Source: a virus. Taken from it: 36,013 nt of DNA. The notes beneath the pieces were generated by a model. The model saw only the letters and a program-made list of their open reading frames with translations, searched no databases and was not told the origin of the DNA. Position numbers and translations under genes: made by a program. Shown piece by piece: positions 11,751 to 27,002 of the stretch (positions are counted from its first letter, which is position 1; each line of letters opens with the position of its first letter). The DNA is taken from positions 1-36,013 of the IMG/VR virus record IMGVR_UViG_3300040801_003188, one strand, 5' to 3'.

Positions 11751-11778
11751 CCCTCCCACGCCCCGGGGCGTGGGAGGG
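11751..11778 (-). terminator. Intrinsic terminator at the convergence point of the two arms (palindrome family copy 1)
   Basis: 28-nt perfect palindrome ccctcccacgccccggggcgtgggaggg. On the - strand it is followed by gttttggtattatttttt. It lies 9 nt after the stop of the last - strand gene. Confidence 0.75.
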
Positions 11779-11786
11779 TGACCTAC

Positions 11787-12173
11787 TCAATAGGTTGACA
11801 TTTCAGTTCTTGGGGCAAAACGCGGTATTGCACTTTGCCCAACAGTTACCAAATGTGACAGCATCATTGCCCTACACAAAATGTGGTGTGCGTGATTCAT
11901 CTGGGTGTCAGAATCCACGCTGCCGGGGTCATTTTGAAATTCATTTATGTGCCGCAACAAAGACTGCATAACCATTGGAACCGTATAATACTTTGTCCAA
12001 TCCTGGCCCGGGTGTAATTCCTCCCCCATAGTCATTATTTTGGCCATATTTCTAGTGGCAACAGGACTTATCAAATCAAATCTGAGTTTATTAGTGTCCC
12101 CAGATTTTGGCCCCGACTCGGTGTTGCTAACAACGCTATCGTTTGGTTGCAAATCGACTTTGATATCAGACAT
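11787..12173 (-). CDS. mazZ: MazZ/DUF550-type dNTP pyrophosphohydrolase-like protein
   Basis: 128 aa. KLRFDLISPVATRNMAKIMTMGEE...DWTKY...SLLRHINEF...HAHHILCRAMMLSHL matches my recollection of the dATP/dGTP diphosphohydrolase N-terminal family (K.R.DLip.eal..la.vlt.G..KY...NW...RH...HLaHa.cn). It sits in a cluster with the purZ and HD genes. Confidence 0.5.
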   Translation of the reverse strand: MSDIKVDLQPNDSVVSNTESGPKSGDTNKLRFDLISPVATRNMAKIMTMGEELHPGQDWTKYYTVPMVMQSLLRHINEFQNDPGSVDSDTQMNHAHHILCRAMMLSHLVTVGQSAIPRFAPRTEMSTY

Positions 12174-12544
12174 GCATTACTCTCCCATGTTGATATAGTT
12201 GGTTTCTGGCTTTTGCTGAATCTATCGTACCGCGTTCCCATGACCCACACCCAATGACTTTCTGTGCCATCATAGCATAGCAGTAGCGGCATACCGCCGA
12301 CTTTTGTGCGTTTCCTGTACCATCTGACTTGGGTATCCCTTAAATAAATGTACCCCTTGGACCATTGGTGCACAAATTTTATTTCGATTTGATTAGACGC
12401 CCCGTTCAAAAAATAATCTACATCTGGGAATCCGGGGCTGCTGTCAGCGCATTCTATGTTGTTGGCATGCCCCCCGTTCTTTTCTATTTGTTTAATCAAA
12501 TAGTTTTGGACATCGCGTTCAGATCTTAATTGGTCCTGTCTCAT
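12071..12544 (-). CDS. PD-(D/E)XK nuclease, VRR-NUC-like
   Basis: 157 aa. SERDVQNYLIKQIEKNGG...GFPDVDYF...NQIEIKF gives a D...E-x-K catalytic signature with the VRR-NUC-type N-terminal helix. The 3' 103 nt overlap the mazZ-like gene in another frame. Confidence 0.55.
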   Translation of the reverse strand: MRQDQLRSERDVQNYLIKQIEKNGGHANNIECADSSPGFPDVDYFLNGASNQIEIKFVHQWSKGYIYLRDTQVRWYRKRTKVGGMPLLLCYDGTESHWVWVMGTRYDRFSKSQKPTISTWESNACLISKSICNQTIALLATPSRGQNLGTLINSDLI

Positions 12545-13016
12545 ACTCTTTAACCACCTTTTCTATGCTCGAAAACAAAGCCGGATACGTGTTACGAATT
12601 TTTGCTGTAAAATCGCCCCATTTGTTTAAAAGATAATCCGTAACGTTAGCAGAATGCCTACCAACCCCGTAGTCGGACAAGAACCATATAGCATCCAACA
12701 TATCGGCAGCTTTTATTATAATATATTCAGGCTCCGACAGATCCCTATTGTGACCGGAAGAGTACAGCTGTTTAGTTGAATTAAATAGTCTTTCTTTTGT
12801 TGGGGTAGGTATATCGCCATTTATTATTTCATCTAAATCATGTTCTAGCGCCGCTTTTATTATGTTATCGTCATCGATACCGTATTTTTTTGCAATGGCC
12901 CTGGCTATCATCACCACGTTAAAAGTGTGCTCCGCTAACGACTGGTCCCTGGTAGTAGATACGATTACCCATCTTTTAACGGAATGTGCCCTAAGTATGT
13001 CTTGTATATCAAGCAT
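12519..13016 (-). CDS. datZ: HD-domain phosphohydrolase, DatZ-like (dATP triphosphohydrolase candidate)
   Basis: HD motif residues: LAEHTFNV...ALEHDLDEIINGDIP. The likely start is ATG 13016 (MLDIQDIL...), 4 nt after the purZ stop, with AGGA upstream. The track start at 13154 would overlap purZ by 146 nt. About 165 aa. Confidence 0.6.
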   Translation of the reverse strand: MLDIQDILRAHSVKRWVIVSTTRDQSLAEHTFNVVMIARAIAKKYGIDDDNIIKAALEHDLDEIINGDIPTPTKERLFNSTKQLYSSGHNRDLSEPEYIIIKAADMLDAIWFLSDYGVGRHSANVTDYLLNKWGDFTAKIRNTYPALFSSIEKVVKEYETGPIKI

Positions 13017-14046
13017 TTTTTGTATCCTGGTACTCTTTAATGTCCTCATATTTTGGCCCCCATCCGGTGTAAGACACCCCAACGGATCGGTCAACATGGG
13101 CACCACACATGTTATTGATTTCTTTAATAACATGCTCTGTTGATTCAGGCGCATAATTACAGAAATTCAAAAATATGTTTGTCGGTTGGCAAGCAATTAT
13201 AGCCTGCTTCATTTGAATCCTAGAGAACGAAAATACGCGCCTAACCCTGTTTGTTACCGTGGTCACTTCTGGTTCAACCCCGATGTCTGCCCATTCTATC
13301 TCTTCCTGATCCGGATAGCCGGGGCCGGAGAATCCGTTGGGGGTATTGCCGACCCTAATTGGGTGCAACCTAGCGGATCCAATAACTTTATTCAAATAAG
13401 CGTGCGGCACGCCGCAATCGGACAAAAATCTAGCTGGACCACAATCTCTACTGGTACAATATGGCCAGAACCCAGAGTTTATGCCCAAGGAGTAACCTTG
13501 AGCCCCCTCTATTAGAATGGACCTTGCTTTGTCCATTACGTCTAGCCATGTTGCATGACTTACAACGTTCCAGGAACTATCCAGAACATCGGTAGCCAAA
13601 CATAATTTGTCTTTACTTCTACTCATCTTGTCAACCATAGCAGCCATGGACCCCTGCATTGTACTGGCGATATGGTTTAACGAATTTTGCTCCTGTTCTT
13701 TGTGCCTTTCTTGCAGCACCGTGGCGGCCTCGTGTATCAATACTACGAATCTGAGACCTATGTCACGGCAATGTTGCAATTCGCTATACAGGCGTGCCGG
13801 GTCAAACACAGAACCGGGACCAATCATCACAAATTCAGTATTCTTGCCCATAACACCAGACGGCAGAACTTTATGTACCATCTTTATGTTGTCGCCCATC
13901 ATAAAAGTATGCCCAGCATTTGGCATGTTGGCATTGACTACAACTTCGTAATCTTTCTTAAGGGACAAATACCCTGCAATCAGCCCCTTACCTGTTGAGC
14001 CAAACTGCAGATCGACAATAATGTCCGCTTTTCTTCTGTTGTTCAT
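13009..14046 (-). CDS. purZ: PurZ-like N6-succino-2-amino-2'-deoxyadenylate synthase (short adenylosuccinate synthetase homologue)
   Basis: 345 aa versus about 430 for PurA. It aligns by eye to PurA motifs. [11 protein letters not shown] matches GTQWGDEGKGK, with Ser replacing the PurA Asp. NAGHT and LPSG are present. [23 protein letters not shown] matches [32 protein letters not shown] matches GATTGRRRR. Confidence 0.8.
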   Translation of the reverse strand: [345 protein letters not shown]

Positions 14047-14048
14047 TG

Positions 14049-16298
14049 CTATTTCTCCAAGTTGATACCTAAACGAGTTTTAACAACTGATTTCAATAGC
14101 CACAGTGGCGGCACTTCAAATAACCTTGGTCCACTTTTTACCCGTTTGTCTATAAACCCTAATTCACGCAATTTAGCATAAAATATCGTGCTACCTAATA
14201 CATGCCCTTTGACCCTCTCTCTTGACCAATTGGCAAATTCTTCATACAGCATTAATCTGTTAACCCTGCTTGGCCATTTACTATCTGGGTTATCCTCGTC
14301 CGGGGTTTCGAGTGATTCTTGCTCTATAATGCGAGATACCCAATGCACAAACGGCTCAGATAGGGCCAAGCGCTCCCGTTGGTGCTCCAATGCTTCTGTT
14401 TCTGGAGCACGCCTTAGATTGTGGGTTATTTTTCTATTTTGTAGATAATGCAACAAATGCGATAGCCCGGGGCCTTTCATCTGGTCGAAAAATTTATCAA
14501 AATACGCATGGTCATTGACTTTATTGTTGGCTACATCTAGCACAAACCATCTTCGCGACTGTGGGCCAGCCGGTATGAACCAATCCTCGTTGCTGGCCAC
14601 AACCAAATGTATCATATTGCGGTGTTTAGTTACATCTATCCCTTTACGTTCCAACATCAATTCACGTTCAGTAACCAGTCCCTTCAATTTACCGGCTGTT
14701 TTCTTATTGCCGCCCCACAGGATCTCGTCAGCAAACACCAGCAATGCGTCCTGCATGTGAGCATTAAATTTGCCTGTTAAATGCTCATCATCAGTAAGGT
14801 GGACATAATGCGTGCCCAATAATTTGCCTATGGTATTAAATACCATACCTTTTCCGGCACCTTCATCGCCGTGCAAAATGATAGACGCACCTTTTGGGTT
14901 TGCCGGGTCTTGTATTAGATCAGCAAACCAATCCATAACCCAATTATAATGATCTTCGTTCCCTTTACACAAAACATCCCTAACGTGCGACAAAAATACG
15001 CTACAATCCCCCGGGCGAGGCGAGGTTGTGAACCCCTCCCAAGTATTATAATATCCTGATGGAACTTTGCCGTCTGGAAACATGCCGAGGCCATTGTGAT
15101 ATGTTCGCCTAGCCGGGCTGGCTAACCAAATATCAGCAGCTGGCTTTAATACCGGCCCTTTACTGGTGTCGATAACTACCTTTCTAGGCTCCATCCACGT
15201 CCTAAATGAATCTCTATCCAACAATGAATAGCGCGGGTCATCCGATTTGCGGTCGCTGTTTTCAACCAATATCCTAATTTTATTGCCAACCAACACTACG
15301 GCAAATTCTTGATTAAGTTCTTCTACTAGTTCATCGAACGAATTATGATCTACGTCATCCGACCCAGCTGACCATCCCGCTTTTTTGGCGTAATAAACCA
15401 GTGACCCTATTCGCACGGGGCCATCAGATTTAAACCCATTCCACCTTATGTGGCATTCGTTCTTTTTGTACCTGCTGCCGTTTTTGCTCCAACTATCCCA
15501 AACTTCTAACCCATCATCATCAGGGTATTGTGAATGTATGGCTTGCCCTATTCTTAACCATTCGTCATATGTTACTTCATTTTGGTCAATGTAATCCAAC
15601 ATCCGCCTTATTTGGTCTAGCGGTATAGGGCGCTCCACGTCTTCATTGGTCATGCCCTCATTGCCACGGTTACTGTGGCTAGGCGGTTTCCACGGTACGC
15701 CCAATGAATTGTATACGAATGGCGGTATAGCTGTTATTTCGCCGCCCGATTCCCATTCATACCGCTTACCGTTTACTATGGACGGGAATGCTACTATGTG
15801 CGATTTACAGCTGTTACTATCCCCGCCTCTAGTATCCACACCTTTAGCTATTTTACTGGTTGAACTGGTAGCATTTTCTGCCCACAAGTACAAGTAATGC
15901 TTGCCGCCCCTTGGGGTTCGTTGAACCGGGCTATCCGGCAAATCGTTACTTTCATAATTACCTATGCCGTTGCAATCTGGGGTTACATCAGCATCTACAG
16001 CAAACACCCCGCCTTCACGGCCACACGCTATTCCTATGTTATAACCAACGTACCTGCCTGAATCAGGATGAAACCAATTATCTATGACTTTTGGATTTCT
16101 TGAGGCCGCCCCATAGTTTATGGCCTGTACTAATTTACCATTTATTTGCTCTTTCCTGGGCAATCCTTTGCCATTTGGTACTATTGGTAGTACGTATATC
16201 TTGTTTTCTATGTAGTGTTTTGCAGCTAGGTATACTTTCCATTCTTGGGTATAATCATCGGTGTTTATTTGGGCAAGATAATCAGCATCGATTCTCAT
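14049..16298 (-). CDS. Bifunctional primase-polymerase (AEP PrimPol, PriCT-2) fused to a D5/P4-type SF3 helicase
   Basis: The N-terminus (GIACGREGGVFAVDADV...PRGGKHYLYLW...GVDTRGG) has AEP motifs. YDEWLRIGQAIHSQY...WDSWS resembles PriCT-2. The Walker A motif is ILHGDEGAGKGM. ATG 16298 shares one base with the pol stop (TAATG). The track start at 16334 is TTG. Confidence 0.8.
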   Translation of the reverse strand: MRIDADYLAQINTDDYTQEWKVYLAAKHYIENKIYVLPIVPNGKGLPRKEQINGKLVQAINYGAASRNPKVIDNWFHPDSGRYVGYNIGIACGREGGVFAVDADVTPDCNGIGNYESNDLPDSPVQRTPRGGKHYLYLWAENATSSTSKIAKGVDTRGGDSNSCKSHIVAFPSIVNGKRYEWESGGEITAIPPFVYNSLGVPWKPPSHSNRGNEGMTNEDVERPIPLDQIRRMLDYIDQNEVTYDEWLRIGQAIHSQYPDDDGLEVWDSWSKNGSRYKKNECHIRWNGFKSDGPVRIGSLVYYAKKAGWSAGSDDVDHNSFDELVEELNQEFAVVLVGNKIRILVENSDRKSDDPRYSLLDRDSFRTWMEPRKVVIDTSKGPVLKPAADIWLASPARRTYHNGLGMFPDGKVPSGYYNTWEGFTTSPRPGDCSVFLSHVRDVLCKGNEDHYNWVMDWFADLIQDPANPKGASIILHGDEGAGKGMVFNTIGKLLGTHYVHLTDDEHLTGKFNAHMQDALLVFADEILWGGNKKTAGKLKGLVTERELMLERKGIDVTKHRNMIHLVVASNEDWFIPAGPQSRRWFVLDVANNKVNDHAYFDKFFDQMKGPGLSHLLHYLQNRKITHNLRRAPETEALEHQRERLALSEPFVHWVSRIIEQESLETPDEDNPDSKWPSRVNRLMLYEEFANWSRERVKGHVLGSTIFYAKLRELGFIDKRVKSGPRLFEVPPLWLLKSVVKTRLGINLEK

Positions 16299-18151
16299 TA
16301 CATCCACCTGCCAGCGCTTGCACTTTCCCACCAATTATTGCCGGGTTCGTTTACCTCTAAAATAAGTGGTACTCGTAGCGGGTTGTTAGATTCTAACGTG
16401 TTTTTTACATCGCGCGCCTTTTGTGTTACCTGCCCTATTGGCAATGACATGCCGTAACTATCATGCGTGTTAAGTATAAGGCATCCATCGTTCTCGTAAT
16501 CTTCACCAAAATAATCATCCAATAACTCCCAGTTTAATTTATTTATGTCGCCAGCGGTCATCTGTATAGCTATGCCACTAGCTTTGTATGCTTTATACCC
16601 GTTAACAAACCTGAACCTGCGGCCAAACATTGTCTGTATGTAGCCGCGTGACTCAGCTAATTTTTTGGCCTTGTCGGCCAATTTTTTTACAGACCAATTA
16701 AGCCTAGCATGGTATTTGTCTATAATATCTACTGCTTCCGGTCCGGGCTTTCTATATGGTACTTTTTTGCCATTCTTTTCAAAATAGTCCCATTCCCACG
16801 GCAGTCCTATTTTCTGTGCTATGGCTCCCCTGCCAGAATTAAAAATCATACTTAGATTTAGCTGCTTAGCATTTGCTTGGCCACTATAGGTAGCATTACG
16901 TACTATGCCCATCAAATCTGCAACATACTGATGTAAGTCCATTTCTGGATTGGCCAAATAAGCCGATATCAAATTTGGATTATTAACCAAATGAGCAAAT
17001 ACCCTAACCTCAAATGACGACTCATCAGCGTCCACCCACACATGGCCGGGCTCAGGCAAAAAGCATGATTTTACTAGTCTAGCTACCTCTTTATTGCGAG
17101 AAGGTATCTGCTGCAGAGCCGGGTCCACATACGATAGCCTGCCGGTGCCTGTGCCGCCATCCGGCCCTCTGTTCTGATTGATGGTAGGGTACACCCTGCC
17201 ATCAATAGCGTGGCCCAATATGTGTTTGCCAAGAAACGTGTCCCTGGTTTTTATCAATGATCTTATTTCTATTATTAATTTGGCCCTGGGGTCGTCCATT
17301 TCGCGCAGGTACTCGGCCCCCAAACTTGGCCCCCCCTTTGGGGTTTTGCCGATCCTAAAATTGTCTACATACCATTCCCCATCTTCTTTTTGGTACGGCA
17401 CGAATACCTTAGATTTAAGCTGCGGGCCAGAGTTTACGTTTATATTATCCCCGCACAGCTTGTTTAACTCGGCTTGCTTACTTTCAATGATCGGGGTAAG
17501 TTTTTCTTGCGTCTTTTCTGATTCATCTATATCCACCCTCACCCCGCGCATGTTGGCCCTAGTGATGGCCGGAATTTTGGCGCGTTCAAAGTCTATTATC
17601 TTAGATATGCCCTGATTTTTGATCTCAGTTTCTTGCCAAAGCCAAAGATCAAGGCACAATCTAGAGTCTTGTTTGGCGTATTTTGCTGTTACCTCCACCG
17701 GAGCCTCTGATATGCGGCCAATTTGTGCCTTACGGGTAGCTGGACCACCAAACATGGCGGCCAATTCTTCGTATATGTTAGTGTCTTTTCTTTTGTCTAA
17801 ATACAAATAAGCTAGACTATCAAGGTCGTATTCATATAAAGTTTCATCTATCAACGTGGCCCTATTTATGGTACAATCCATCGATCGTATCGGCATCCTT
17901 ATGCCGGACACATGGCTCATCATATAATCAAATTTTGCCCCGTGGCAAATGATTCTACCAGCGTATCCGCTTAACTCGTTGCACAGCCACACTACAACTT
18001 TAGGGCTACGCCTTATGTCCCAATAATAATCATTCCCGTCAGGGGTCGATATTGCAACACCAAAAACTCTGTCAACAGGGTATTGTAGCCCTGTTGTTTC
18101 TGTATCATACGAAAAATAAGGGTATTGTGCTAGTTTTGGGAAGCTGTGCAC
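16298..18151 (-). CDS. Family A DNA polymerase with 3'-5' exonuclease domain (DpoZ candidate)
   Basis: Exo motifs are present: I (YDTETTGL), II (GAKFDYMM) and III (YAKQDSRL). Pol motifs are present: A (DADESSFEVRVFAHL), B (ANAKQLNLSMIFNSG) and C (THDS). The likely start is GTG 18151, 7 nt after GGAG and downstream of a terminator. The track start at 18202 is TTG. Confidence 0.85.
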   Translation of the reverse strand: MHSFPKLAQYPYFSYDTETTGLQYPVDRVFGVAISTPDGNDYYWDIRRSPKVVVWLCNELSGYAGRIICHGAKFDYMMSHVSGIRMPIRSMDCTINRATLIDETLYEYDLDSLAYLYLDKRKDTNIYEELAAMFGGPATRKAQIGRISEAPVEVTAKYAKQDSRLCLDLWLWQETEIKNQGISKIIDFERAKIPAITRANMRGVRVDIDESEKTQEKLTPIIESKQAELNKLCGDNINVNSGPQLKSKVFVPYQKEDGEWYVDNFRIGKTPKGGPSLGAEYLREMDDPRAKLIIEIRSLIKTRDTFLGKHILGHAIDGRVYPTINQNRGPDGGTGTGRLSYVDPALQQIPSRNKEVARLVKSCFLPEPGHVWVDADESSFEVRVFAHLVNNPNLISAYLANPEMDLHQYVADLMGIVRNATYSGQANAKQLNLSMIFNSGRGAIAQKIGLPWEWDYFEKNGKKVPYRKPGPEAVDIIDKYHARLNWSVKKLADKAKKLAESRGYIQTMFGRRFRFVNGYKAYKASGIAIQMTAGDINKLNWELLDDYFGEDYENDGCLILNTHDSYGMSLPIGQVTQKARDVKNTLESNNPLRVPLILEVNEPGNNWWESASAGRWM

Positions 18152-18165
18152 AGTATTGCTCCGAT

Positions 18166-18191
18166 AAAAAAGGGGGGACCAAAGTCCCCCC
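18166..18191 (-). terminator. Rho-independent terminator/attenuator between the SSB-like gene and the polymerase gene
   Basis: The - strand reads GGGGGGAC-TTTG-GTCCCCCC followed by TTTTTTAT. That is an 8-bp GC stem (18172-18179 / 18184-18191) and a T-run (18166-18171). Confidence 0.75.
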
Positions 18192-18202
18192 AATCTGGGC
18201 AA

Positions 18203-18937: not shown

Positions 18938-18976
18938 TTTATGTTCCTCTGTTCACTGTTCACTGTTAAACGTTCA

Positions 18977-19375: not shown

Positions 19376-19390
19376 GTCTTTGTCTCCTGT

Positions 19391-19729: not shown

Positions 19730-19753
19730 TGCGGTCTCCTAGTCTATAGTGTT

Positions 19754-19782
19754 ATTATACCACATGCGGCGAGCCGTGTCTA
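19754..19782 (-). promoter_or_regulatory. Sigma70-like promoter: TAGACA-17 nt-TATAAT with TGTGG extended -10
   Basis: The - strand reads TAGACAcggctcgccgcatgtggTATAAT. The -35 overlaps the SNF2 stop codon. The RBS and ATG of 19391..19729 lie about 20 nt downstream. Confidence 0.6.
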
Positions 19783-21522
19783 CCCTCGTTCCGCAAGCTT
19801 AGTGGTGACAAACGTAGATATAGATTGTTTAGTGGCCAGGGCCTCTATTATCATTTTGTCTACCTCGTGATCCAACACCAGATCCACAACAAGAATTCCC
19901 CTGGACCTGTTGTTGTCGTCACCCCTGGCCAATGACTGTTCCCTGTCGTTGTAACTAAATGTGTTTGAGTAATAGATCATAGAGTCCGCATTTTGTAAGG
20001 GCAACCCTCTGCCACCAGTTTGGGCATTAGATAAGAAAAATTGGCAATTGTCGTCCTTATGGAACCTACGTATTGCCTCCGCCCTTTCTTCCGGCGAATT
20101 AACCCCGCCATGATACTCTACGCAACAACCCTCACCAAAATTGCTTACTAAGTGATCTTTTATGATGCTTAATTCAGGCCTGAATCTAGCCCATATGATT
20201 GTTTTACTGTCGCGTCCTATTTGTTCTATTACGTTTAGCAAGCCATCTAATTTTGGATTTTTGTTTAACGGCTTTATTTCGTACTGCTCATCGCCGTTGT
20301 CATCCTTCCCAATGGGGATCGGCAAAAATCCGCCCGCTATTTGTTGGTAACGCAATAGCCGCTCTAATACTGTTTCTACTTCAAGAATGCCGGAATCGGT
20401 CTCTATTGCAAAAATGTCTTTCAACGACGCTATGTGTTGCCGCTGTTCCTTGCTAGGCTCGATATACCTAGTTTCAAAAACAGCATCTGGCAAATTCGGC
20501 ATGGCTTGCTTTTTGGTGACAATATCAATGTACGGGCCAATCAAGTCAAACAATTCGTTAGTATTTTTATACCCTTCAATCGTGCGAAATGAACGACCAC
20601 TACTAGGCCCATGTTTGATTATAATTTCTCGTTCAACTAAATACCTGTTTTTGAACGAATAATAATTCGGCACCCCAATTATGGACCAATTCATGGCATA
20701 AAATTGAGAGTACAAATCTTGCACGCCTTGCGTCACTGGGGTGCCGTTTAACAAAGCGATATACGCGGCACTGCCACATATATCTGTTACCCTGCGCGTT
20801 CTCATAGATTTATGATTTTTGATAGATACTGATTCATCTATGATGACCATCACTTTACGGTCTTTCATAAAATGATTAGCATACTTAAACGCGTTGCCTT
20901 GGCTAAATGCTTCTACGCCGATCACCAAACACGGCATCGGCCCCTGGCCTTCCCCCCTGTGTACTGCATCCCAATCTAAAAACTTGCGGTGTTGCCCGGA
21001 TCGCAACATATGGGAGGAGTGAGGCAGTGTCATAAATTTGGCCAATTGCCCGTCGCTGCCGATCCAAACCGGGCCAACTGCAGATGGCGGTATGATCAAT
21101 ACCGCATTTATTTCCCCCCTTGCGGCCAGTGCTGACGCCCACTGGATAGCAGTGTATGATTTGCCTGCACGCATAGCGTGGGCAAAGTAAAAATACTTTT
21201 TGCCCCAAGCCCTATTTAAAGCTTTTAATTGGTGCGGCCGTGGCGGGTCGCTAGGCCATTGGTGGTCTAAAGGGAACTCGTTCTTTGACTTTTCTACTTT
21301 ATCGTTTATCTTACTTATAGCTACTTTGGCGGCACTAGTTATTTCTTCCTGGTCATACTGAGAAATGATTTCACGAGCTGTGGGTACTATGGCTGGGGCT
21401 TCCCAAGACCTAGACGATTTAATCCACTTAGCTGACGGTATGGTTTTAACTCTACCGTTGTCCCAATAGGGACAACGTATCTGGAACATTCCTTTATTGA
21501 AGTCTACGGTGGCTACTTTCAT
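19780..21522 (-). CDS. SNF2/DEAD-like superfamily 2 helicase
   Basis: Motif II is IIDESVSIKN. The C-terminal helicase motifs are SNAQTGGRGLPLQNADSMIYYSNTFSYNDREQSLARG. The likely start is ATG 21522 (MKVATVDF), 9 nt after AGGAG. The track start at 21582 is a GTG inside the hairpin. Confidence 0.8.
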   Translation of the reverse strand: MKVATVDFNKGMFQIRCPYWDNGRVKTIPSAKWIKSSRSWEAPAIVPTAREIISQYDQEEITSAAKVAISKINDKVEKSKNEFPLDHQWPSDPPRPHQLKALNRAWGKKYFYFAHAMRAGKSYTAIQWASALAARGEINAVLIIPPSAVGPVWIGSDGQLAKFMTLPHSSHMLRSGQHRKFLDWDAVHRGEGQGPMPCLVIGVEAFSQGNAFKYANHFMKDRKVMVIIDESVSIKNHKSMRTRRVTDICGSAAYIALLNGTPVTQGVQDLYSQFYAMNWSIIGVPNYYSFKNRYLVEREIIIKHGPSSGRSFRTIEGYKNTNELFDLIGPYIDIVTKKQAMPNLPDAVFETRYIEPSKEQRQHIASLKDIFAIETDSGILEVETVLERLLRYQQIAGGFLPIPIGKDDNGDEQYEIKPLNKNPKLDGLLNVIEQIGRDSKTIIWARFRPELSIIKDHLVSNFGEGCCVEYHGGVNSPEERAEAIRRFHKDDNCQFFLSNAQTGGRGLPLQNADSMIYYSNTFSYNDREQSLARGDDNNRSRGILVVDLVLDHEVDKMIIEALATKQSISTFVTTKLAERG

Positions 21523-21552
21523 GCCACATATCTCCTGTCTATGTCTTAAAAT

Positions 21553-21578
21553 CCTCCCACGCCCCGGGGCGTGGGAGG
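21553..21578 (-). terminator. Palindrome family copy 2. Possible attenuator between gene 21603..22037 and the SNF2 gene.
   Basis: 26-nt perfect palindrome cctcccacgccccggggcgtgggagg. On the - strand it is followed by attttaa. Confidence 0.5.
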
Positions 21579-21602
21579 CCACGTTACATTGTGGGTCAGC
21601 TA

Positions 21603-22037
21603 TTATGCTGCCTTTTTGGTCTTCTCCTTCTCGGCCTTGGCCAAGGCCCTGGCCTTCTCGGCCTTGGCCTTCTCGACCTTGGCCCTGGCCTTCTCCTTCT
21701 CGGCCTTGGCCTTCTCCGCTTCCTTTACCCGTGCATCGCGGGACTTACGAGCAGAAGCACTGGCCTTATTCAGGTCGGCATTCTCATTCTTTGCCACGTA
21801 GGCGCGAATTCGATTACCAATAATCATGCGCTGCTGGCCTGGGTTCAGATGGCTATAATCCTTGTCCAGCGCAGAACCAGTCAGCTTATCAAACACATCG
21901 GTCACTTCTTCAACGGTCATTCCTTCTAGAACTGCAGCAACATCATCACCACAGTTTAGGGTCTTTGCGCCAGAAGGGCTGCGACCTTTGGTGTACTTAG
22001 AAGTATCGGGCTTAATAACAGTCTTTTCGTCACTCAT
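21603..22037 (-). CDS. LNPGQxRM-motif protein with a Lys/Ala/Glu-rich (histone-H1-like) C-terminal tail. Candidate DNA-binding protein.
   Basis: The likely start is ATG 22037 (MSDEKTV), 6 nt after GGAGA. It is a paralogue of 25647..26168 (DYSHLNPGQQRMIIGNRIRAY vs KYESLNPGQIRMNSGNRLRAA). The tail is KEAEKAKAEKEKARAKVEKAKAEKARALAKAEKEKTKKAA. Confidence 0.6.
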   Translation of the reverse strand: MSDEKTVIKPDTSKYTKGRSPSGAKTLNCGDDVAAVLEGMTVEEVTDVFDKLTGSALDKDYSHLNPGQQRMIIGNRIRAYVAKNENADLNKASASARKSRDARVKEAEKAKAEKEKARAKVEKAKAEKARALAKAEKEKTKKAA

Positions 22038-22090
22038 CGTTTTTCTCCATCGAGGATTAAAATAACATAGGTTATTCAACCTACACCATT

Positions 22091-22120
22091 ATCATAACAT
22101 ACACTGATGATCCACGTCAA
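22091..22120 (-). promoter_or_regulatory. Possible sigma70-like promoter: TTGACG-18 nt-TATGAT
   Basis: The - strand reads TTGACGtggatcatcagtgtatgtTATGAT. It overlaps the stop of 22117..22545 and lies about 50 nt upstream of ATG 22037. Confidence 0.3.
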
Positions 22121-22545
22121 TCTGTATTTGGCTCTTCTTCCTCCTCACGGCAATCTGCTACGGTAAAATCACAGATGTCGCCCATCATGTAACGCAAAGC
22201 ATCATTGAAGGCTAGCATTGCTTTAACTATTGAATCATTTTCTGGCATTTCGCCCTGCAAAAGATCATTCAAAACCGTATTTACTGAGTCTACCATTGGG
22301 TATAGAGGAACAAACAATGGACCAGTTATGTCCTTTTTTACGTGCCTCCACATTTTACTGATCTCTTCCTTCGTTGACGGGTCATCTAGACCACCAAGGG
22401 CGAGACATCCCCATGACGGCGGTTCAATGTTGATATCGAAAGTAACATCAACTAGCTGCGACGCATCGTTTGCTTCAATGGTGACCAAAACTGGCAGTGC
22501 TGTATACTTTTTGCCGCTATCCTCGTTTTCTCCGTCTAATGGCAT
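22117..22545 (-). CDS. Acidic hypothetical protein
   Basis: The likely start is ATG 22545 (MPLDGENED), preceded by GGAGGGAAG inside the end of the upstream gene. The C-terminus is ...CREEEEEPNTD. Confidence 0.6.
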   Translation of the reverse strand: MPLDGENEDSGKKYTALPVLVTIEANDASQLVDVTFDINIEPPSWGCLALGGLDDPSTKEEISKMWRHVKKDITGPLFVPLYPMVDSVNTVLNDLLQGEMPENDSIVKAMLAFNDALRYMMGDICDFTVADCREEEEEPNTD

Positions 22546-22546
22546 T

Positions 22547-23428
22547 TTACTTCCCTCCATTTGGGTGCATGTTGTTGCGACTGAGCTGAATGGTCAAAGT
22601 GATAGCTTTCTTCAACACAGCCTCCATGTTAATTCCGGTTGCTTCATGTATCCACGTCCATGCGTGGTCTGTGGTATCTACCATCCTTTTTGGTATCGCG
22701 GCCACCAATTCATCAATAACTGCGGCAAGCACTTGCTCCTCAATAGCTGCCACTTGCAATGGACTCCTATTAGACCGTTCCTTTTGCTTTGCCGCCTTGG
22801 CCTCGGCCATTTGCTCCTGTTTCTGCTTTGCTTTGGCGATGATTGCCTGTTTGTATGCCGCACCCAAGGTCATCTTGCCTTCATCGACCAGGGGCAGGAA
22901 ATGAGGAGCCCACTCATTGATGTATTTCCTACGCTCGACGTTTTCTTGTTCCTCAGTCAGGGCAGGTTCTTCCGACTCATCGGTAACGGACACCACAGTT
23001 TTATCTTCATCTACCATGGCTTTTACCTGAGATCGAGTGGGCTTTACGCCTTTGGACGCATCCTCCAGGAATTCTTCCCTCAGGATATCAGAAGCCGGTA
23101 TCATTTCAATAAGAACTGTTCGCGGCAATGACCGAGCCCTTGAATCATCAAAAAACTCACGTGCCAGCGCCATCAATTTGTTACGATACTGCTGGCTCAA
23201 CCCCGGCAAAAAAGCTCTGGCCCACGTTCCAAACTCACAGTCCCCGGGCAACAGGGCTCTGGCCTCCAATAGGTGAACACCGGCCTGCATCGCTTTGTCG
23301 GTAGCTTGTTGGGCCAAAGATTCAGCGTTTACAATTTCGGCGTTAATAGATTCGGCCAGTTTGTTAAGCCTGTCTATGGTGTCCAAATCTTTAGGATCAG
23401 GATATTGGTATTTGGTTAATTTAGTCAT
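22547..23428 (-). CDS. Hypothetical protein, DUF3102-like N-terminal region
   Basis: The likely start is ATG 23428 (MTKLTKYQ), 7 nt after GGAGGA. The track start at 23461 lies inside the hairpin. QAGVHLLEARALLPGDCEFGTWARAF...KLMALAREF resembles DUF3102 as I recall it. Confidence 0.45.
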   Translation of the reverse strand: MTKLTKYQYPDPKDLDTIDRLNKLAESINAEIVNAESLAQQATDKAMQAGVHLLEARALLPGDCEFGTWARAFLPGLSQQYRNKLMALAREFFDDSRARSLPRTVLIEMIPASDILREEFLEDASKGVKPTRSQVKAMVDEDKTVVSVTDESEEPALTEEQENVERRKYINEWAPHFLPLVDEGKMTLGAAYKQAIIAKAKQKQEQMAEAKAAKQKERSNRSPLQVAAIEEQVLAAVIDELVAAIPKRMVDTTDHAWTWIHEATGINMEAVLKKAITLTIQLSRNNMHPNGGK

Positions 23429-23456
23429 GTCTATTCCTCCACAGAGTGAAATCACC

Positions 23457-23476
23457 CCCACGCTCCGGGGCGTGGG
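23457..23476 (-). promoter_or_regulatory. Palindrome family copy 3 (7-bp stem cccacgc/gcgtggg, 6-nt loop)
   Basis: cccacgctccggggcgtggg, located between promoter-like 23488-23517 and the RBS of gene 22547..23428. Confidence 0.6.
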
Positions 23477-23487
23477 AGATACGTGTC

Positions 23488-23517
23488 ATGATACCACACA
23501 TCTCCTGTCTATGTCTA
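23488..23517 (-). promoter_or_regulatory. Sigma70-like promoter candidate: TAGACA-18 nt-TATCAT with TGTGG extended -10
   Basis: The - strand reads TAGACAtagacaggagatgtgtggTATCAT. It starts right after the stop of 23518..23838. Confidence 0.45.
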
Positions 23518-23838
23518 CTAATACTTAGATTTTCTGCGTCGGCCCGGCTCGTGAATCGTATTCAACAACTTTTTTGCCAACTCGACAGCACCATCGTGAG
23601 GATTGTGTAACACAGTTTCCCCAGTGTCTACATCATAGTGGAATTTCTCATCCGTCAGTGCCAGCTGTTCGCGTGTCGCACTTCGAGTCAGGATCGGGCT
23701 GCCGTTAATAAAAATTGTCACGGTTATCATGGTTTGGTGTCCTTTGTTTGGTCTGGTCTCCACGCCTCGTTCGAGGAGTTCATAATCGCAGTGCGTACAG
23801 AACACACTGTAGTCCCCGTGCTTTTCACAGTAGGCCAT
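23518..23838 (-). CDS. Hypothetical protein with an N-terminal Cys/His cluster
   Basis: ATG 23838 overlaps the upstream TGA (TGATG), with GGAGGG 6 nt upstream. The N-terminus is MAYCEKHGDYSVFCTHCDYE. Confidence 0.6.
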   Translation of the reverse strand: MAYCEKHGDYSVFCTHCDYELLERGVETRPNKGHQTMITVTIFINGSPILTRSATREQLALTDEKFHYDVDTGETVLHNPHDGAVELAKKLLNTIHEPGRRRKSKY

Positions 23839-24314
23839 CACCTACCCTCCGGTCGCTTCACCAACGTCTCCCGCCAGCGCTCGGGGTCATATTCGGGCAT
23901 ACCAGCGACCCCGCGCAGCGACATCGACGGCGTAGAGCCGCACCAAGACTTTTCCCCAGAACTGGGCTTTTCTGCATAGCCGTACCAGAGACGGGAGCGT
24001 GACGAGTACTGCGAAAAGCGGTCTCCGGCCACCCATTTAATATCAGGGTGGATGTGATCCCACGGAATCATGTCGGAGGTGATGTAAGGCTTAGGGATGA
24101 GGTCAAACTGACTATCCCTGTCCGGGTAAAACCACCCGTCGCGCGGCCATGTGTCCGCACACCACACTCGCAGACCTGGGGCGTAATAGGCAGCGAGAAT
24201 AGGGCGCTTGCCTGGAAGGTCATTAGCGTACAGCCGCACCTCCCAGCCGTTGCGCAGCGTGTGCTCTCGGGTGATGTCGATTTTGTCGGTCATTCTTTGT
24301 CTTTTCAGGGTCAT
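23838..24314 (-). CDS. Hypothetical Trp-rich protein
   Basis: 158-aa ORF, GC-rich, with GAGAGGAAAcgaacATG upstream. Confidence 0.6.
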   Translation of the reverse strand: MTLKRQRMTDKIDITREHTLRNGWEVRLYANDLPGKRPILAAYYAPGLRVWCADTWPRDGWFYPDRDSQFDLIPKPYITSDMIPWDHIHPDIKWVAGDRFSQYSSRSRLWYGYAEKPSSGEKSWCGSTPSMSLRGVAGMPEYDPERWRETLVKRPEGR

Positions 24315-24326
24315 GTTCGTTTCCTC

Positions 24327-24407
24327 TCAGTAAGGCGCGCTCGTGTCTGTGGTTGTGACCTGGATGGGGTCGATGTCGTCAGTCATAAAGCCTTTTTGCA
24401 TTTTCAT
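24327..24407 (-). CDS. Possible 26-codon micro-ORF (MKMQKGFMTDDIDPIQVTTTDTSAPY)
   Basis: Its ATG overlaps the TGA of the upstream gene (ATGA) and it fills an otherwise empty 89-nt gap. There is no other support. Confidence 0.2.
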   Translation of the reverse strand: MKMQKGFMTDDIDPIQVTTTDTSAPY

Positions 24408-24757
24408 TTAAGGCCATCCATTTTTAAGTACCAAGACCAGATGTGGTTTGCTAACAGTGTATTTACTGAGGTTGCCATCTCCTGCTCTCCCGAGGCGAAC
24501 CACCAAACGGTGAACACTGCTGCGGTAAGGTCAATCTTTCCCCCTTCTTGGTGAAGTGTTTTATGCGCCTCCCAACCTAGCCGTACCGCGCTCAAGTCGT
24601 ACTTCGACCAGTGTTTGTCTGGCATGCTCTCAACAAAAGCGCGGAACTCTGGGTCAGGCGTCCCCAGAAACTCACATCTAGCGAGGTACTCAGTATCATT
24701 CATGCCATCACCACTGCCAGCCGAGAGTAGCCCGTAAACAACGAGGCGAATATTCAC
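24404..24757 (-). CDS. Hypothetical protein (start uncertain)
   Basis: 117-aa ORF from GTG 24757. An alternative ATG sits at codon 19 (MNDTEYLARCEF). Confidence 0.5.
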   Translation of the reverse strand: MNIRLVVYGLLSAGSGDGMNDTEYLARCEFLGTPDPEFRAFVESMPDKHWSKYDLSAVRLGWEAHKTLHQEGGKIDLTAAVFTVWWFASGEQEMATSVNTLLANHIWSWYLKMDGLK

Positions 24758-24775
24758 GATATAGCCGCATCATGG

Positions 24776-24943
24776 CTAGTTCCTCTTCTCAGCTACGTTA
24801 GATGCCCCATAAACCCCTAGTGCGCCCAACATGGCGGTTACCCAACCTGTTCCGTCCAGGTGTTCAGTAAACAAGGCAACAGTTGCCAACCCTATGCTGA
24901 TGCACGTCAGCCAGAATTTTCGACTCATATATTTGGGATTCAT
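24776..24943 (-). CDS. Small two-transmembrane-segment protein (55 aa), absent from the ORF track. Holin-like by size and topology only.
   Basis: ATG 24943 lies after GAGGGTGcaaa. Translation: MNPKYMSRKFWLTCISIGLATVALFTEHLDGTGWVTAMLGALGVYGASNVAEKRN, with TAG at 24776-24778. Confidence 0.5.
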   Translation of the reverse strand: MNPKYMSRKFWLTCISIGLATVALFTEHLDGTGWVTAMLGALGVYGASNVAEKRN

Positions 24944-24964
24944 TTTGCACCCTCTATGTGAAAA

Positions 24965-25040
24965 TGGTGGGTCTGGCAGGACTCGAACCTGCAGTCTACC
25001 GATTATGAGTCAGCTGCTTTAACCTTTAAGCTACAGACCC
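24965..25040 (-). tRNA. tRNA with CAT anticodon (elongator Met or lysidine-dependent Ile2), with CCA encoded
   Basis: Folded by hand: acceptor GGGTCTG/CAGACCC; D arm GCTT-AAAGGTTA-AAGC; anticodon arm GCTGA-CTCATAA-TCGGT; variable loop AGACT; T arm GCAGG-TTCGAGT-CCTGC; then A-CCA. G1-C72 is paired, so it is not an initiator. Confidence 0.85.
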
Positions 25041-25054
25041 ACCGAGGTTAAAGG

Positions 25055-25396
25055 TTAAAACTGGAACCCTACCGTGGCACGAATCACTTCAGCGTCATGC
25101 GATCGGCCATAGGAAAATGACACTGTTGGGGCGTGGTCGCCGATACTACGGTGCGTCAGAGTTACGCCAGCCCCAGTCGGGCCATTGAGCACGCCTGCAC
25201 CGCCAAAGTCGATTCGGGTTCGGCCCGGGTCCGGCGTTACACTGGGCAGGGCCATTGCAGCAGCCAAATGGTCACTGGTTTCCTCCACCACAGTGATGTT
25301 GGTTTCCTCCACCACAGTGATCGGGGGGTCAATTTCCTTGCCTCCGGCAAAAACCGAGCAGGGCACCAATGCAGCAAACAAAACAAACTTTTTCAT
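25055..25396 (-). CDS. Secreted mini outer-membrane protein resembling a headless trimeric autotransporter (YadA-type anchor)
   Basis: The signal peptide is MKKFVLFAALVPCSVFA|GG, with AGGAGA RBS. ITVVEET[NS] is tandemly repeated. The C-terminal ~70 aa (LAAAMALPSVTPDPGRTRIDFGGAGVLNGPTGAGVTLTHRS...IRATVGFQF) resemble the YadA anchor consensus and end in an OMP-type terminal Phe. Confidence 0.5.
   Translation of the reverse strand: MKKFVLFAALVPCSVFAGGKEIDPPITVVEETNITVVEETSDHLAAAMALPSVTPDPGRTRIDFGGAGVLNGPTGAGVTLTHRSIGDHAPTVSFSYGRSHDAEVIRATVGFQF
25277..25324. repeat. 24-nt tandem duplication inside the mini-autotransporter gene
   Basis: ggtttcctccaccacagtgat occurs at 25277-25297 and 25301-25321. 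Confidence 0.9.
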
Positions 25397-25419
25397 TGCG
25401 TTTCTCCTGGTTGATTTAC

Positions 25420-25650
25420 CTACGTTACGGCTTCGAGCATTGATTTGAATCTCAGCCTGATGAATTCCGGTGCTTTAATTAACACGCGCACCGGCATTTT
25501 TTGGGCCCGTGCTGACCTCACCATTCTGGCGGCCTGATCAACAGACTCGGCCAGGGTACAATTGGTTGCACGGACGTCCCACGACTGGCCGACAGCACGG
25601 ACCACGAAATTGCTGTCGGCCAGTTCTACCCTAACTACGACCTTGTTCAC
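25420..25650 (-). CDS. Hypothetical protein
   Basis: 76 aa. The GTG start overlaps the upstream TGA (GTGA). Confidence 0.5.
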   Translation of the reverse strand: MNKVVVRVELADSNFVVRAVGQSWDVRATNCTLAESVDQAARMVRSARAQKMPVRVLIKAPEFIRLRFKSMLEAVT

Positions 25651-26168
25651 TCCACGTCACCCCTCTGCTTGACCATGGCCCGCATCGCGGCCTTGACGTT
25701 ATCCAGGGTGATATCCCTACGTTTGATTGCCGCACGCAGCCTGTTGCCGCTGTTCATCCGGATCTGGCCGGGGTTCAGGGATTCGTATTTGGCCATCAGC
25801 CAGCCGGGTTCATCCCCGTCCACAGACAGGGCGATTTCCGCAGCCAAACAAACGTCGTTAGGTGACAAAGGACGCAGAACCTCGGCCAATTCGTCTCCCG
25901 TGTTTTGGGTCTTTTTGCCAGAGTAGGAGACGTCCTCGTGGTACCCAGCGCGGTATTTGGCCAGGATTTGGCTCATTTTCCTGCCGTCAGCTGGCGCGTG
26001 ATCCAGCTGGGATTCCCTGGCCTTGATTACTGTGCCGTCTGGGCAGGTGATTTCGTACCACCCTTTCTGGTAACCCGTGACAGTGCCTTCGTAGGTTCCG
26101 GATTTGGTGGTAGCACGAACCTGAGCGCCGTGGTCGAAAGCAGGCGCGTTGTCTGTTTTGCTGGTCAT
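25647..26168 (-). CDS. LNPGQxRM-motif protein with an N-terminal SH3/KOW-like segment (paralogue of 21603..22037)
   Basis: 173 aa. ATG follows AGGAGACAGACCA. It shares a ~75-aa region with 21603..22037 (SG.KT.N.GD..A.VL...Y..LNPGQ.RM..GNR.RA). Confidence 0.6.
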   Translation of the reverse strand: MTSKTDNAPAFDHGAQVRATTKSGTYEGTVTGYQKGWYEITCPDGTVIKARESQLDHAPADGRKMSQILAKYRAGYHEDVSYSGKKTQNTGDELAEVLRPLSPNDVCLAAEIALSVDGDEPGWLMAKYESLNPGQIRMNSGNRLRAAIKRRDITLDNVKAAMRAMVKQRGDVE

Positions 26169-26257
26169 TGGTCTGTCTCCTAGTCGTTGTCTAAAGGTCT
26201 ATTCTAACACAGCTAGTTGCTCGCTGCAAGCCCTGTTTGTTAACCCGTGGGGTCCCC

Positions 26258-26403
26258 GGCTCGGGGCTCCAGGCTCCGGGCTCCAGGGGGGCTCCGGGTC
26301 GCTCGTCCGGACCACCCCTGGACCCTACCTACCCACCCAACCCCTACCTCTCCCCGCGAACTAGAGAGAGAGTTGGAGCCTGGAGCCCGGGAGCCCCGAG
26401 GGG
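26258..26403. repeat. Inverted arrays of the GGCTCCR heptamer flanking a 34-nt G-free tract (G-quadruplex motif on the - strand)
   Basis: GGCTC[CG]R occurs x4-5 at 26258-26296. The complement GGAGCC occurs x3 at 26375-26395. The tract 26322-26355 (accctacctacccacccaacccctacctctcccc) contains no G. Confidence 0.8.
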
Positions 26404-26411
26404 TTTCTTGG

Positions 26412-26600
26412 TTACCGCTTGACGCCCCAGGTCGAAGCGCCCAGCACCCAGACCTCCTCGCCGTCGTCGAACTCCACAATTGGGCACTGACTGCCGAGTT
26501 CCTCGACGTACTCGGCCAGCCGTTCGGCGACTTGGTCGCCAGTCACGGAACTCGGGTGCTCGACCTCGAACTCTAAAACCACTTTGGTAACTCTGTTCAC
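26412..26600 (-). CDS. First early gene: small, strongly acidic protein
   Basis: 62 aa with about 13 D/E versus 5 K/R. The GTG start follows AGACAGGAGACAGCAGAC and lies about 50 nt downstream of the leftward promoter. Confidence 0.6.
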   Translation of the reverse strand: MNRVTKVVLEFEVEHPSSVTGDQVAERLAEYVEELGSQCPIVEFDDGEEVWVLGASTWGVKR

Positions 26601-26655
26601 GTCTGCTGTCTCCTGTCTGGTTTCGGGGTCAGGCGTTCGCCGACCCTACCCCGTA

Positions 26656-26684
26656 ATTGTACCACACAACACCTGGCTGTACAA
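26656..26684 (-). promoter_or_regulatory. Leftward early sigma70-like promoter: TTGTAC-17 nt-TACAAT with TGTGG extended -10
   Basis: The - strand reads TTGTACagccaggtgttgtgtggTACAAT. Confidence 0.6.
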
Positions 26685-26740
26685 CTACCGTTCGTCGGGT
26701 TGTCGGGTTGTCCTTGTGCGCCACGCCCGCCGAACCGCGT

Positions 26741-26758
26741 CCACGCCCCGGGGCGTGG
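26741..26758. promoter_or_regulatory. Palindrome family copy 4
   Basis: ccacgccccggggcgtgg, an 18-nt perfect palindrome. A half-site-like ccacgccc also occurs at 26721-26728. Confidence 0.6.
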
Positions 26759-26922
26759 GAAGCCGAACCAGGAGCCCAGCTGGGGGCTGGGGTTTGCTGT
26801 TCGCGGTTCGCGTACGGAGGGAAGGGGGCTGGCCCCCCCAACCGGGGCCCCCGGACCCCGGACCCCTGGTTTTTCTTCCCAAAATAACGGTCCGAGATTT
26901 TTAATATATTGCATAGTCTTCT

Positions 26923-26944
26923 TCCCACGCTCCGGAGCGTGGGA
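26923..26944. promoter_or_regulatory. Palindrome family copy 5, abutting the -35 of the rightward promoter
   Basis: tcccacgctccggagcgtggga, a 22-nt perfect palindrome. Both central changes (C>T and G>A) are compensatory relative to copies 1, 2 and 4. Confidence 0.65.
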
Positions 26945-26947
26945 GGC

Positions 26948-26976: not shown

Positions 26977-27002
26977 TTGGGGAAGATGGCAGGAGTACCA
27001 AA

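Follow-up and report, generated by a model that had tools for sequence, protein, structure and literature searches.

The 36,013-nucleotide stretch of viral DNA analysed here (IMG/VR record IMGVR_UViG_3300040801_003188, called the window in what follows) carries five copies of a GC-rich palindrome, CCCACGCYCCGGRGCGTGGG, at the boundaries of its transcription units. This repeat family is real and non-random. The explanation that we favour, and hold with moderate confidence, is that the copies are duplicated stem-loops, which in the leftward arm of the genome would work as graded terminators or attenuators of transcription (one of them also as a 5' hairpin) and which, as copies 4 and 5, would serve as insulators or mark the edges of a spacer between divergent promoters. 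The window is a circular assembly whose bases 1-117 are the same as bases 35897-36013 (an exact 117-nt overlap inside a gene), the genome being complete at 35,896 bp. Its rightward arm runs from 27003 through the junction to 11741 and its leftward arm from 26600 down to 11787. The five copies are the following:

Copy 1, 11751-11778, - strand: a 28-bp perfect palindrome filling the 45 bp that separate the late (+) unit from the leftward (-) unit converging on it.
Copy 2, 21553-21578, - strand: a 26-bp perfect palindrome between the gene LNPGQ-2 (21603-22079) and the SNF2 helicase gene (19780-21522).
Copy 3, 23455-23478, - strand: between the last high-GC early gene and a gene of 293 amino acids (aa), starting at about +4 of an internal promoter.
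Copy 4, 26740-26759, no strand assigned: core palindrome at 26741-26758, 57 nt upstream of the -35 (26683/4) of the leftward promoter P_L.
Copy 5, 26921-26946, no strand assigned: a perfect palindrome at 26923-26944 with a symmetric C>T / G>A change.

When up to two mismatches were allowed, CCCACGCYCCGGRGCGTGGG was found at exactly five sites (11755-11774, 21556-21575, 23457-23476, 26740-26759 with 1 mismatch, and 26924-26943), each copy in fact matching with at most one mismatch, and none of 100 dinucleotide shuffles contained any match at the same tolerance. A covariance model built from the five copies gave them scores of 25-49 bits and the next best place in the window only 9.7 bits; there are therefore five copies, without decayed relics elsewhere in the window. 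An earlier note, made from the sequence alone, had counted five copies and placed all of them between genes, and both statements hold: intergenic DNA makes up 1,256 of the 35,896 bp (3.5%) on our own gene map, and all five copies lie inside it. Moreover, the genome has six intergenic perfect hairpins whose stem reaches 7 bp or more, and all but one of them are members of the CCCACGCYCCGGRGCGTGGG family.

As DNA, four of the copies are perfect palindromes (11751-11778, 14+14; 21553-21578, 13+13; 26741-26758, 9+9; 26923-26944, 11+11) and copy 3 (23457-23476) is one of 7 bp with a 6-nt loop. The stems of the five hairpins measure 7-12 bp, their bare-stem energies range from -13.6 to -26.5 kcal/mol, and in a 61-nt context copies 1, 2 and 5 fold with z-scores of -3.7 to -5.1. 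The elements are about 85% GC and have sharp borders inside a genome of 45% GC. Copies 2, 4 and 5 were found unchanged in contigs assembled independently from sister samples and are therefore not assembly artefacts. No microdiversity was seen at the copies in these contigs, which are 99.8-100% identical to the window, the few differences all lying outside the copies.

The core is the same in all five copies, with the exception of the -3/+3 positions and of one outer base of copy 4, and conservation peaks at the dyad centre and falls off outward. We infer as the ancestral form one GC-rich stem-loop of about 26 nt, CCTCCCACGCCCCGGGGCGTGGGAGG. All four one-sided substitutions are transitions, each giving a G.U pair on one strand (the - strand for one change in copy 3; the + strand for the other change in copy 3 and for those of copies 4 and 5), a pattern that hints at pairing yet is too sparse to weigh. 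The earlier note had also drawn support from the double change in copy 5 that keeps the palindrome perfect. The change is indeed present at 26923-26944, but it has no statistical weight: it is the one compensated pair of the family, 258 of 500 column shuffles reach as much, and the chance that two of the three T/A variant half-sites (among ten) share one copy is 0.33 by our calculation. A covarying structured RNA family was rejected on the same count of shuffles, which left no significant compensatory substitution, and no known RNA family in Rfam matched.

Within the leftward arm, copies 1 to 3 look like terminators. On the - strand, copy 1 RNA forms a 12-bp stem with a CCGG loop (-26.5 kcal/mol) followed by GUUUUGGUAUUAUUU; its tail scores, calculated in the style of TransTermHP as are all those below, are -3.30 on the - strand and -2.37 on the + strand, and it is the best terminator-like match of the genome scan. 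Copy 2 forms an 11-bp stem (-23.2 kcal/mol, tail -3.06), followed by AUUUUAAG and then by the ribosome-binding site (RBS) and ATG of the helicase. Copy 3 forms a 9-bp stem with one G.U pair and a 6-nt loop, followed by UGAUUUCACU (-16.0 kcal/mol and -2.97 on the - strand; -14.9 kcal/mol and -2.50 on the + strand), and lies 27 nt before the ATG (23428) of the 293-aa gene. Its sense stem gains a G.U pair whose equivalent on the + strand is C.A. The earlier note had allowed a U-tract to copies 1 and 2 only, which has to be corrected, since copy 3 too has a short one on its sense strand. In all three copies at least four T are present within the first 8 nt past the sense-strand stem (GTTTTGGT, ATTTTAAG, TGATTTCA); with a background of 0.107 per position, the joint chance for three copies is about 1e-3. 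The opposite orientations score -2.5 or weaker. For comparison, the two canonical terminators of the same genome, which are of unique sequence, reach -3.64 for the one behind the capsid gene (33303-33324) and -5.24 for the one behind the gp34-like gene (18191-18172). A small leader open reading frame (ORF) spanning copy 3 was considered and dismissed, as the spacing of its RBS is too short.

The scan for promoters gave no candidate site between copy 2 and the start of the SNF2 gene, nor between copy 3 and the 293-aa gene. The genes behind these two hairpins therefore need some read-through, or an override, and copies 2 and 3, as judged from this promoter scan, must be leaky or overridden and are not full stops.

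Comparison with relatives adds to this picture. The two-arm layout and the PurZ genes of the window are common to Alteromonas phage ZP6 and, as in ZP6, an LNPGQ-domain gene precedes the SNF2 helicase gene. In two metagenomic relatives the same gap between LNPGQ-2 and SNF2 contains a canonical hairpin followed by U5 whose sequence is unrelated to copy 2 (L068, 16512-16534; L062, about 9951-9978). In L062 the helicase starts so close after the U-run that a promoter has no room, and in L068 the 59-nt gap before the helicase has no promoter-like site on the sense strand. A hairpin with a U-run directly upstream of the SNF2 gene is thus seen in three phages (window 21523-21602, L068 16494-16593, L062 9919-10000), which would imply a conserved attenuation point and a regulated or partial read-through into the replication genes. 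This positional orthology of copy 2 is the strongest comparative evidence for a terminator role. Because of it, and because of the sense-strand U-runs, we strongly infer that copies 1 to 3 are RNA stem-loops and candidate intrinsic terminators or attenuators on the - strand.

Copy 2 is the only copy whose position is conserved without its sequence. No equivalent of copy 1 exists in ZP6 and L062, whose convergent genes overlap there, and none of copy 3 was identified in the relatives. The terminator after the Pam3 gp34-like gene behaves as copy 2 does, its position being kept with unrelated sequences in the window (18172-18191, -), ZP6 (28245-28260), L061 (10348-10371) and L062 (13319-13338). 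Several consensus promoters and terminators are also spread along the leftward arm of ZP6, L061, L062 and L068. Since terminators are kept by position, the punctuation of this arm by promoters and terminators would thus be a feature of the group, with copy 2 at one of its conserved points. It was also observed that the terminator at 18172-18191 runs over the TTG from which the polymerase ORF was called, a start that is probably wrong.

The second part of the family, copies 4 and 5, lies between the divergent promoters of the two arms. The promoters and related features are:

P_R, 26948-26976, + strand: TTGACT-17-TATACT with an extended -10 (TGTGG); first ATG at 27003.
P_L, 26656-26684, - strand: TTGTAC/TGTACA-16/17-TACAAT with TGTGG; first GTG at 26600.
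Internal sigma-70-like promoter, 23488-23517, - strand: TAGACA-18-TATCAT with the TGTGG extended -10 typical of the group, directly upstream of copy 3.
Paralogue box, 21518-21555, - strand: 83% alike over 35 nt to the box at 23488-23525, and placed after copy 2.
Spacer, 26760-26920, no strand assigned: between copies 4 and 5; GC-rich at first, with short tandem 7-mers, and AT-rich further on (about 26871-26920).

P_R is predicted to drive the packaging and structural arm and P_L the leftward early and replication arm. ZP6 has a P_R of the same architecture (TTGACG-17-TATAAT, read off the sequence) and an equivalent of P_L at 37917-37889. The placements given in the earlier note are borne out: copy 5 ends 3 nt before the -35 of P_R (1-3 nt, depending on where its end is set), copy 3, put at about +5 of a promoter-like element, starts at about +4 of the internal promoter, copy 4 lies 57 nt from the -35 of P_L, and copies 4 and 5 do bracket the spacer (164 bp between them, 184 bp from start to start).

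Copy 4 has no U-run on either strand (tails -1.50 and -1.61). Copy 5 forms on the + strand an 11-bp stem with one G.U pair (-18.5 kcal/mol) and a borderline tail of -2.56, this "tail" being the -35 of P_R itself; the - strand tail scores -1.59. Termination does not explain copies 4 and 5. A half-site, CCACGCCC, is present 20 nt to the left of copy 4 (26721-26728), and copies 4 and 5 can pair with each other. It was further noticed that two tandem copies of TCGGGTTGT stand just upstream of P_L (26695-26711).

The spacer matched no Rfam family. By analogy with ZP6 it is a candidate region for genome termini or the origin of replication, given that the genome ends defined by PhageTerm in that phage fall in the equivalent GC-rich spacer (PMC8515928). 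The spacers of ZP6 and L068 are both GC-rich and that of L068 has short repeats of its own. Because of these two parallels, copies 4 and 5 may have a role at the DNA level, in termini or origin. ZP6 also carries a hairpin followed by T5 just upstream of its P_L (37963-37948, -), which may lend mild support to an insulating role of the pair. Another promoter and stem-loop composite of the group was found in ZP6 at 35285-35311, where a hairpin with a 12-bp stem overlaps the spacer and the -10 of an early-arm promoter (TTGACA-17-TACACT).

The hairpins are not the only repeats here. The duplicated 35-nt box on the - strand (TAGACATAGACAGGAGAT.TGTGG.AT) stands beside both copy 2 and copy 3, in opposite order relative to the hairpin. 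At 23517-23488 it is the internal promoter, whose -35 and extended -10 pattern is common to the promoter at 19782-19754. At 21518-21555 its promoter sequence is degenerate, with CATGAA in place of the -10, and the box now provides the RBS and ATG of the SNF2 gene. This duplication next to copies 2 and 3 favours duplication for the family as well.

On this basis we propose that one stem-loop of about 26 nt spread within a single phage lineage to the boundaries of transcription units. In the RNA of the - strand, copies 1 to 3 would be intrinsic terminators that differ in strength. Copy 1 would end the leftward arm where the late genes meet it, copy 2 would attenuate, with some leakage, transcription passing from the variable early genes into the conserved replication genes, and copy 3, at the 5' end of the transcript from the internal promoter, would attenuate transcripts coming from P_L and protect, as a hairpin, the 5' end of the mRNA made from that internal promoter. 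Copies 4 and 5 might insulate the divergent promoters from incoming transcription, or mark the edges of a spacer that serves for control, origin or termini. That the copies are nearly identical would most simply reflect recent intragenomic duplication or gene conversion and not a sequence-specific reader.

Several observations weigh against this explanation. Besides the poor tails of copies 4 and 5, both lie upstream of promoters, no primary transcript is predicted across them, and their G.U extensions favour the + strand, which is not obviously transcribed upstream of P_R. The + strand late operon ends at copy 1 too, where its own strand offers no U-run, and the U-runs of copies 1 to 3 are short (3-4 U). 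The genuine terminators here and in the relatives are unique in sequence and the five near-identical copies therefore need an extra explanation, either a recent spread or a sequence-specific factor. Finally the relatives are distant, at most 54% identical in amino acids for any protein compared (43% for SNF2). The suggestion of the earlier note that the family is more than a set of terminators is fair, as copies 2 and 3 precede genes for which no promoter-like site was detected past the hairpin and copies 4 and 5 are poor terminators upstream of promoters. Its RNA hairpin is the likeliest reading for copies 1 to 3 and, as a terminator, leaves copies 4 and 5 unexplained.

The same note had proposed an operator, and we consider it unlikely that the palindrome is a duplex site for a dimeric phage regulator through which one protein coordinates early and late expression (from about -38 to -61 at P_R, from about +4 to +27 at the internal promoter, and as a roadblock elsewhere). 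The dyad symmetry is perfect, the near-invariant core is more conserved than structure alone needs, copies 5 and 3 abut promoter core elements, copy 4 has its extra half-site, and the two copies that termination leaves unexplained would be accounted for. However, the only positive evidence found for it is the dyad symmetry and the closeness of two or three copies to promoters. Conservation that is highest at the centre and decays outward suits a shrinking stem more than it does two half-sites, an uninterrupted palindrome of 18-28 bp and about 85% GC is atypical of an operator, copies 1, 2 and 4 are not positioned to act on a promoter, and the association of copies 1 to 3 with U-runs is left without a reason. 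Neither an integrase nor a recognisable repressor was found, for which reason the phage looks lytic.

The search for such a regulator among the ORFs scanned yielded no helix-turn-helix, ribbon-helix-helix or other DNA-binding family above the Pfam threshold; the best match, to HTH_38 in an ORF of the late arm, stayed below it (E = 0.034). PHROGs assigned no DNA-binding function to the ten early ORFs that were compared with it. The LNPGQxRM paralogues (25647-26168 and 21603-22079, both -), which share a C-terminal LNPGQxRMxxGNRxRA domain, were also considered. Such a pair, with its first member close to where the arm begins and its second ahead of SNF2, exists in all four arm-spanning relatives (ZP6, L061, L062 and L068), and the second paralogue has a Lys/Ala/Glu-rich tail. 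An AlphaFold 2 model (pLDDT 89.6) consists of a Tudor/SH3-like barrel at the N-terminus and a helical domain; the structural matches were Tudor-type barrels only and weak (E > 0.003), the helical domain had none, and a profile search against PDB sequences gave nothing significant. These proteins are poor candidates for DNA binders.

It is likewise doubtful that a phage RNA-binding factor, an antiterminator or one working with a nuclease, reads terminator or processing hairpins by sequence and times read-through at copies 3 and 2. Such a factor would account for the sequence identity of the three leftward copies and would suit both the read-through needed by the genes after copies 2 and 3, which have no promoter-like site, and the attenuation point before SNF2 that is conserved in three phages. 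No candidate was identified, though, the hairpins at the same point in the relatives are unrelated, so that no conserved reader is implied, and copies 4 and 5 are not predicted to be transcribed. A wider model, in which one phage factor reads the hairpin as RNA, extruded DNA or duplex DNA and couples attenuation at copies 3 and 2 with the P_L/P_R region of copies 4 and 5, seems improbable too. If true, a podovirus without an RNA polymerase of its own, and probably with a 2-aminoadenine genome, would time its genes by a lineage-specific circuit of antitermination or of a "stoperator"-like kind.

We find it very unlikely that the family is at heart a cis element of the DNA, with copies 4 and 5 bordering a terminal repeat, packaging region or origin (as hairpins or cruciforms in single-stranded or supercoiled DNA) and copies 1 to 3 being secondary or by-products. 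The distance between copies 4 and 5, 164-184 bp, is a typical length of podovirus terminal repeats. Their spacer lies between the divergent promoters and directly upstream of terS, its GC-rich block adjoins an AT-rich block, and the ends of ZP6 (PMC8515928), the GC-rich spacers of ZP6 and L068, the short repeats of the latter and the mutual pairing of the two copies all agree with such a function. This leaves copies 1 to 3 and their sense-strand U-runs unexplained, and the relatives are without any such palindrome.

A small mobile GC cluster of little function, comparable to repetitive extragenic palindromic (REP) elements or the GC clusters of yeast mitochondria, that lands between genes is in our view highly doubtful. 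Its high GC content and sharp borders in a 45% GC genome, its absence from all relatives and the overlapping convergent genes of ZP6 and L062 at the location of copy 1 would be expected of such an element, but no target-site duplications were found except a doubtful GCCGAACC pair around copy 4, no RAYT/Y1 transposase or homing endonuclease domain was present in any ORF scanned, no reference genome holds several copies, and the oriented U-runs argue for selection.

The distribution of the motif outside the window bears on these questions. No match was obtained in IMG/VR, INPHARED (50,697 phage records) gave insignificant partial matches only, and ZP6, L060-L063 and L068 had no copies by a palindrome-family finder and the covariance model. 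Among 185,579 species reference genomes the exact 20-mer was present at 24 loci, as a single site per contig in contigs of 63-75% GC, a number that we estimate to be about that expected by chance. It was also present at 32 metagenome loci, and none of the loci in reference genomes or metagenomes was related to the phage by tblastx. Being absent from relatives, IMG/VR and phage records, and present in reference genomes as single sites only, the motif would therefore be a lineage-specific element. The refutation that the earlier note had foreseen, a common host repeat, does not apply: a REP-like or bacterial interspersed mosaic element-like host repeat was rejected for want of any multi-copy occurrence in the reference genomes. 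A solitary CRISPR repeat unit, as in RNA anti-CRISPRs (PMC10651486), was rejected because the flanks share no handle and the genome scan had no array-like multi-hit locus. A GGGTCC motif common to the spacers proved uninformative, being frequent throughout four of the five genomes checked. The phage does not avoid CCGG or other 4-mer palindromes (observed/expected 0.84-1.12). In unrelated high-GC genomes and metagenomes (L014, L018-L021, L032, L039, L044, L055) the exact 20-mer was often about 60 nt or less from a contig end, which suggests that such palindromes break assemblies.

The closest system described is that of the promoter-early stem-loop cassettes (PeSLs) of T4-type phages, which the present family resembles in layout without being a member. 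PeSLs combine a repeated intergenic GC-rich stem-loop, placed before, within or after the promoter, with a sigma-70 promoter and a Shine-Dalgarno sequence; their stem-loops have demonstrated terminator activity, and they flank genes without homologues (ORFans) and mediate modular exchange (Arbiol et al. 2010, PMC2839356; Comeau et al. 2014, PMC4122927). Here four of the five sites stand beside a sigma-70-type promoter or a promoter-derived box: copy 5 abuts P_R, copy 3 follows the internal promoter, copy 2 precedes the promoter-derived box and copy 4 precedes P_L at 57 nt, copy 1 having none. Variable genes are flanked in both cases, copies 2 to 4 bordering the variable early region. On the other hand PeSLs occur in many copies in the hyperplastic ORFan regions of T4-like myoviruses, against five copies in a 36-kb podovirus; the conserved part here is the stem-loop and not the promoter, which one copy lacks nearby; and an AT-rich UP-like element is present only to the left of copy 5. 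Recombination between copies, giving indels and mini-circles, is a trait of PeSLs; no sign of it was seen here, and the sister contigs compared are about 100% identical.

The family shares with ordinary intrinsic terminators a GC-rich stem, a tetraloop and a 3' U-run on the sense strand (copies 1 to 3), the position of copy 1 between convergent units, and the replacement by copy 2 of a canonical terminator found at the same place in relatives. It differs from them in its short U-runs (3-4 U), in the leakiness of copies 2 and 3, in the position of copies 4 and 5 upstream of promoters and in the one sequence shared by all copies, the terminators at 33303-33324 and 18172-18191 being unique. Global regulators can have dispersed palindromic operators, such as the KorB O_B sites of plasmid RK2 and the conserved inverted repeats of phiC31, and these too are one palindrome at several sites and at variable distances from promoters. 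The palindrome of the window is longer, uninterrupted and far more GC-rich, three of its copies have terminator features, and no regulator was identified. In the nut/boxB system of lambda near-identical hairpins also stand in different transcription units and read-through is needed at internal terminators, but the boxB hairpin is short (5-bp stem, 5-nt loop), follows a promoter and is distinct from the terminators, and no N- or Q-like protein was detected in this phage. What is new here is one sequence reused at all unit boundaries together with a promoter-flanking pair.

The phage itself is a podovirus with a T7-type head-tail connector (PF12236), which is encoded in the rightward arm along with TerS and the capsid protein. 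The leftward arm begins with high-GC ORFans and a tRNA-Met and three genes without assigned function, followed by the SNF2 helicase, the Pam3 gp32/33/34-like proteins, the family A polymerase and the PrimPol-helicase, and ends with a PurZ-like adenylosuccinate synthetase homologue, an HD (DatZ-like) hydrolase and a MazZ-like PF18909 protein. These last three genes (11787-14046, -) adjoin 14049-18202, where the family A polymerase and the PrimPol-helicase are located, and the PurZ-like protein is 47% identical to PurZ of ZP6. Since the PurZ, DatZ and MazZ-like genes are present, the genome probably carries 2-aminoadenine in place of adenine (a Z-genome). Amino-acid identities to ZP6 and the metagenomic relatives are 36-54%.

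Some other features of the genome were also registered. Two high-GC islands (55-61%) are present in a genome of 42-48% GC, at 33329-36007 with 116-1312 and at 24000-27000. The first, in the late arm, comprises an 892-aa ORF and a 398-aa ORF with an Ig domain (He_PIG) between the capsid and the downstream structural genes; it stops abruptly at about 1300 and has no palindrome copies at its edges. The tRNA-Met (CAT) gene at 24965-25040 (-) lies among the high-GC early ORFans. Two late genes contain tandem repeats that keep the frame, a 532-aa ORF (10463-10839, 156-nt units, about 2.4 copies) and the 892-aa ORF (34165-34318, 81-nt units, 2 copies). The 164-nt gap at 32241-32404, between a putative scaffold gene and the capsid gene, folds on the + strand with -75 kcal/mol (z = -5.1), contains CCGGGTTGC three times and has no Rfam match.

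The ZP6-like phages that carry PurZ have no RNA polymerase of their own and yet have consensus sigma-70 promoters on both arms, which poses the question of how the timing of early, replication and late genes is set. The hairpin before the SNF2 gene, conserved in position in three phages, is a testable control point, and in this phage it has been taken over by a repeat that also flanks the main promoters, so that one oligonucleotide could probe all five sites. The family moreover allows one to ask whether intrinsic terminators work normally on 2-aminoadenine DNA, where rU:dZ hybrids on the template may weaken ordinary U-tract termination. Should the copies be duplicated terminators only, they would still show, on a small scale, that regulatory cassettes resembling PeSLs exist beyond the T4 group.

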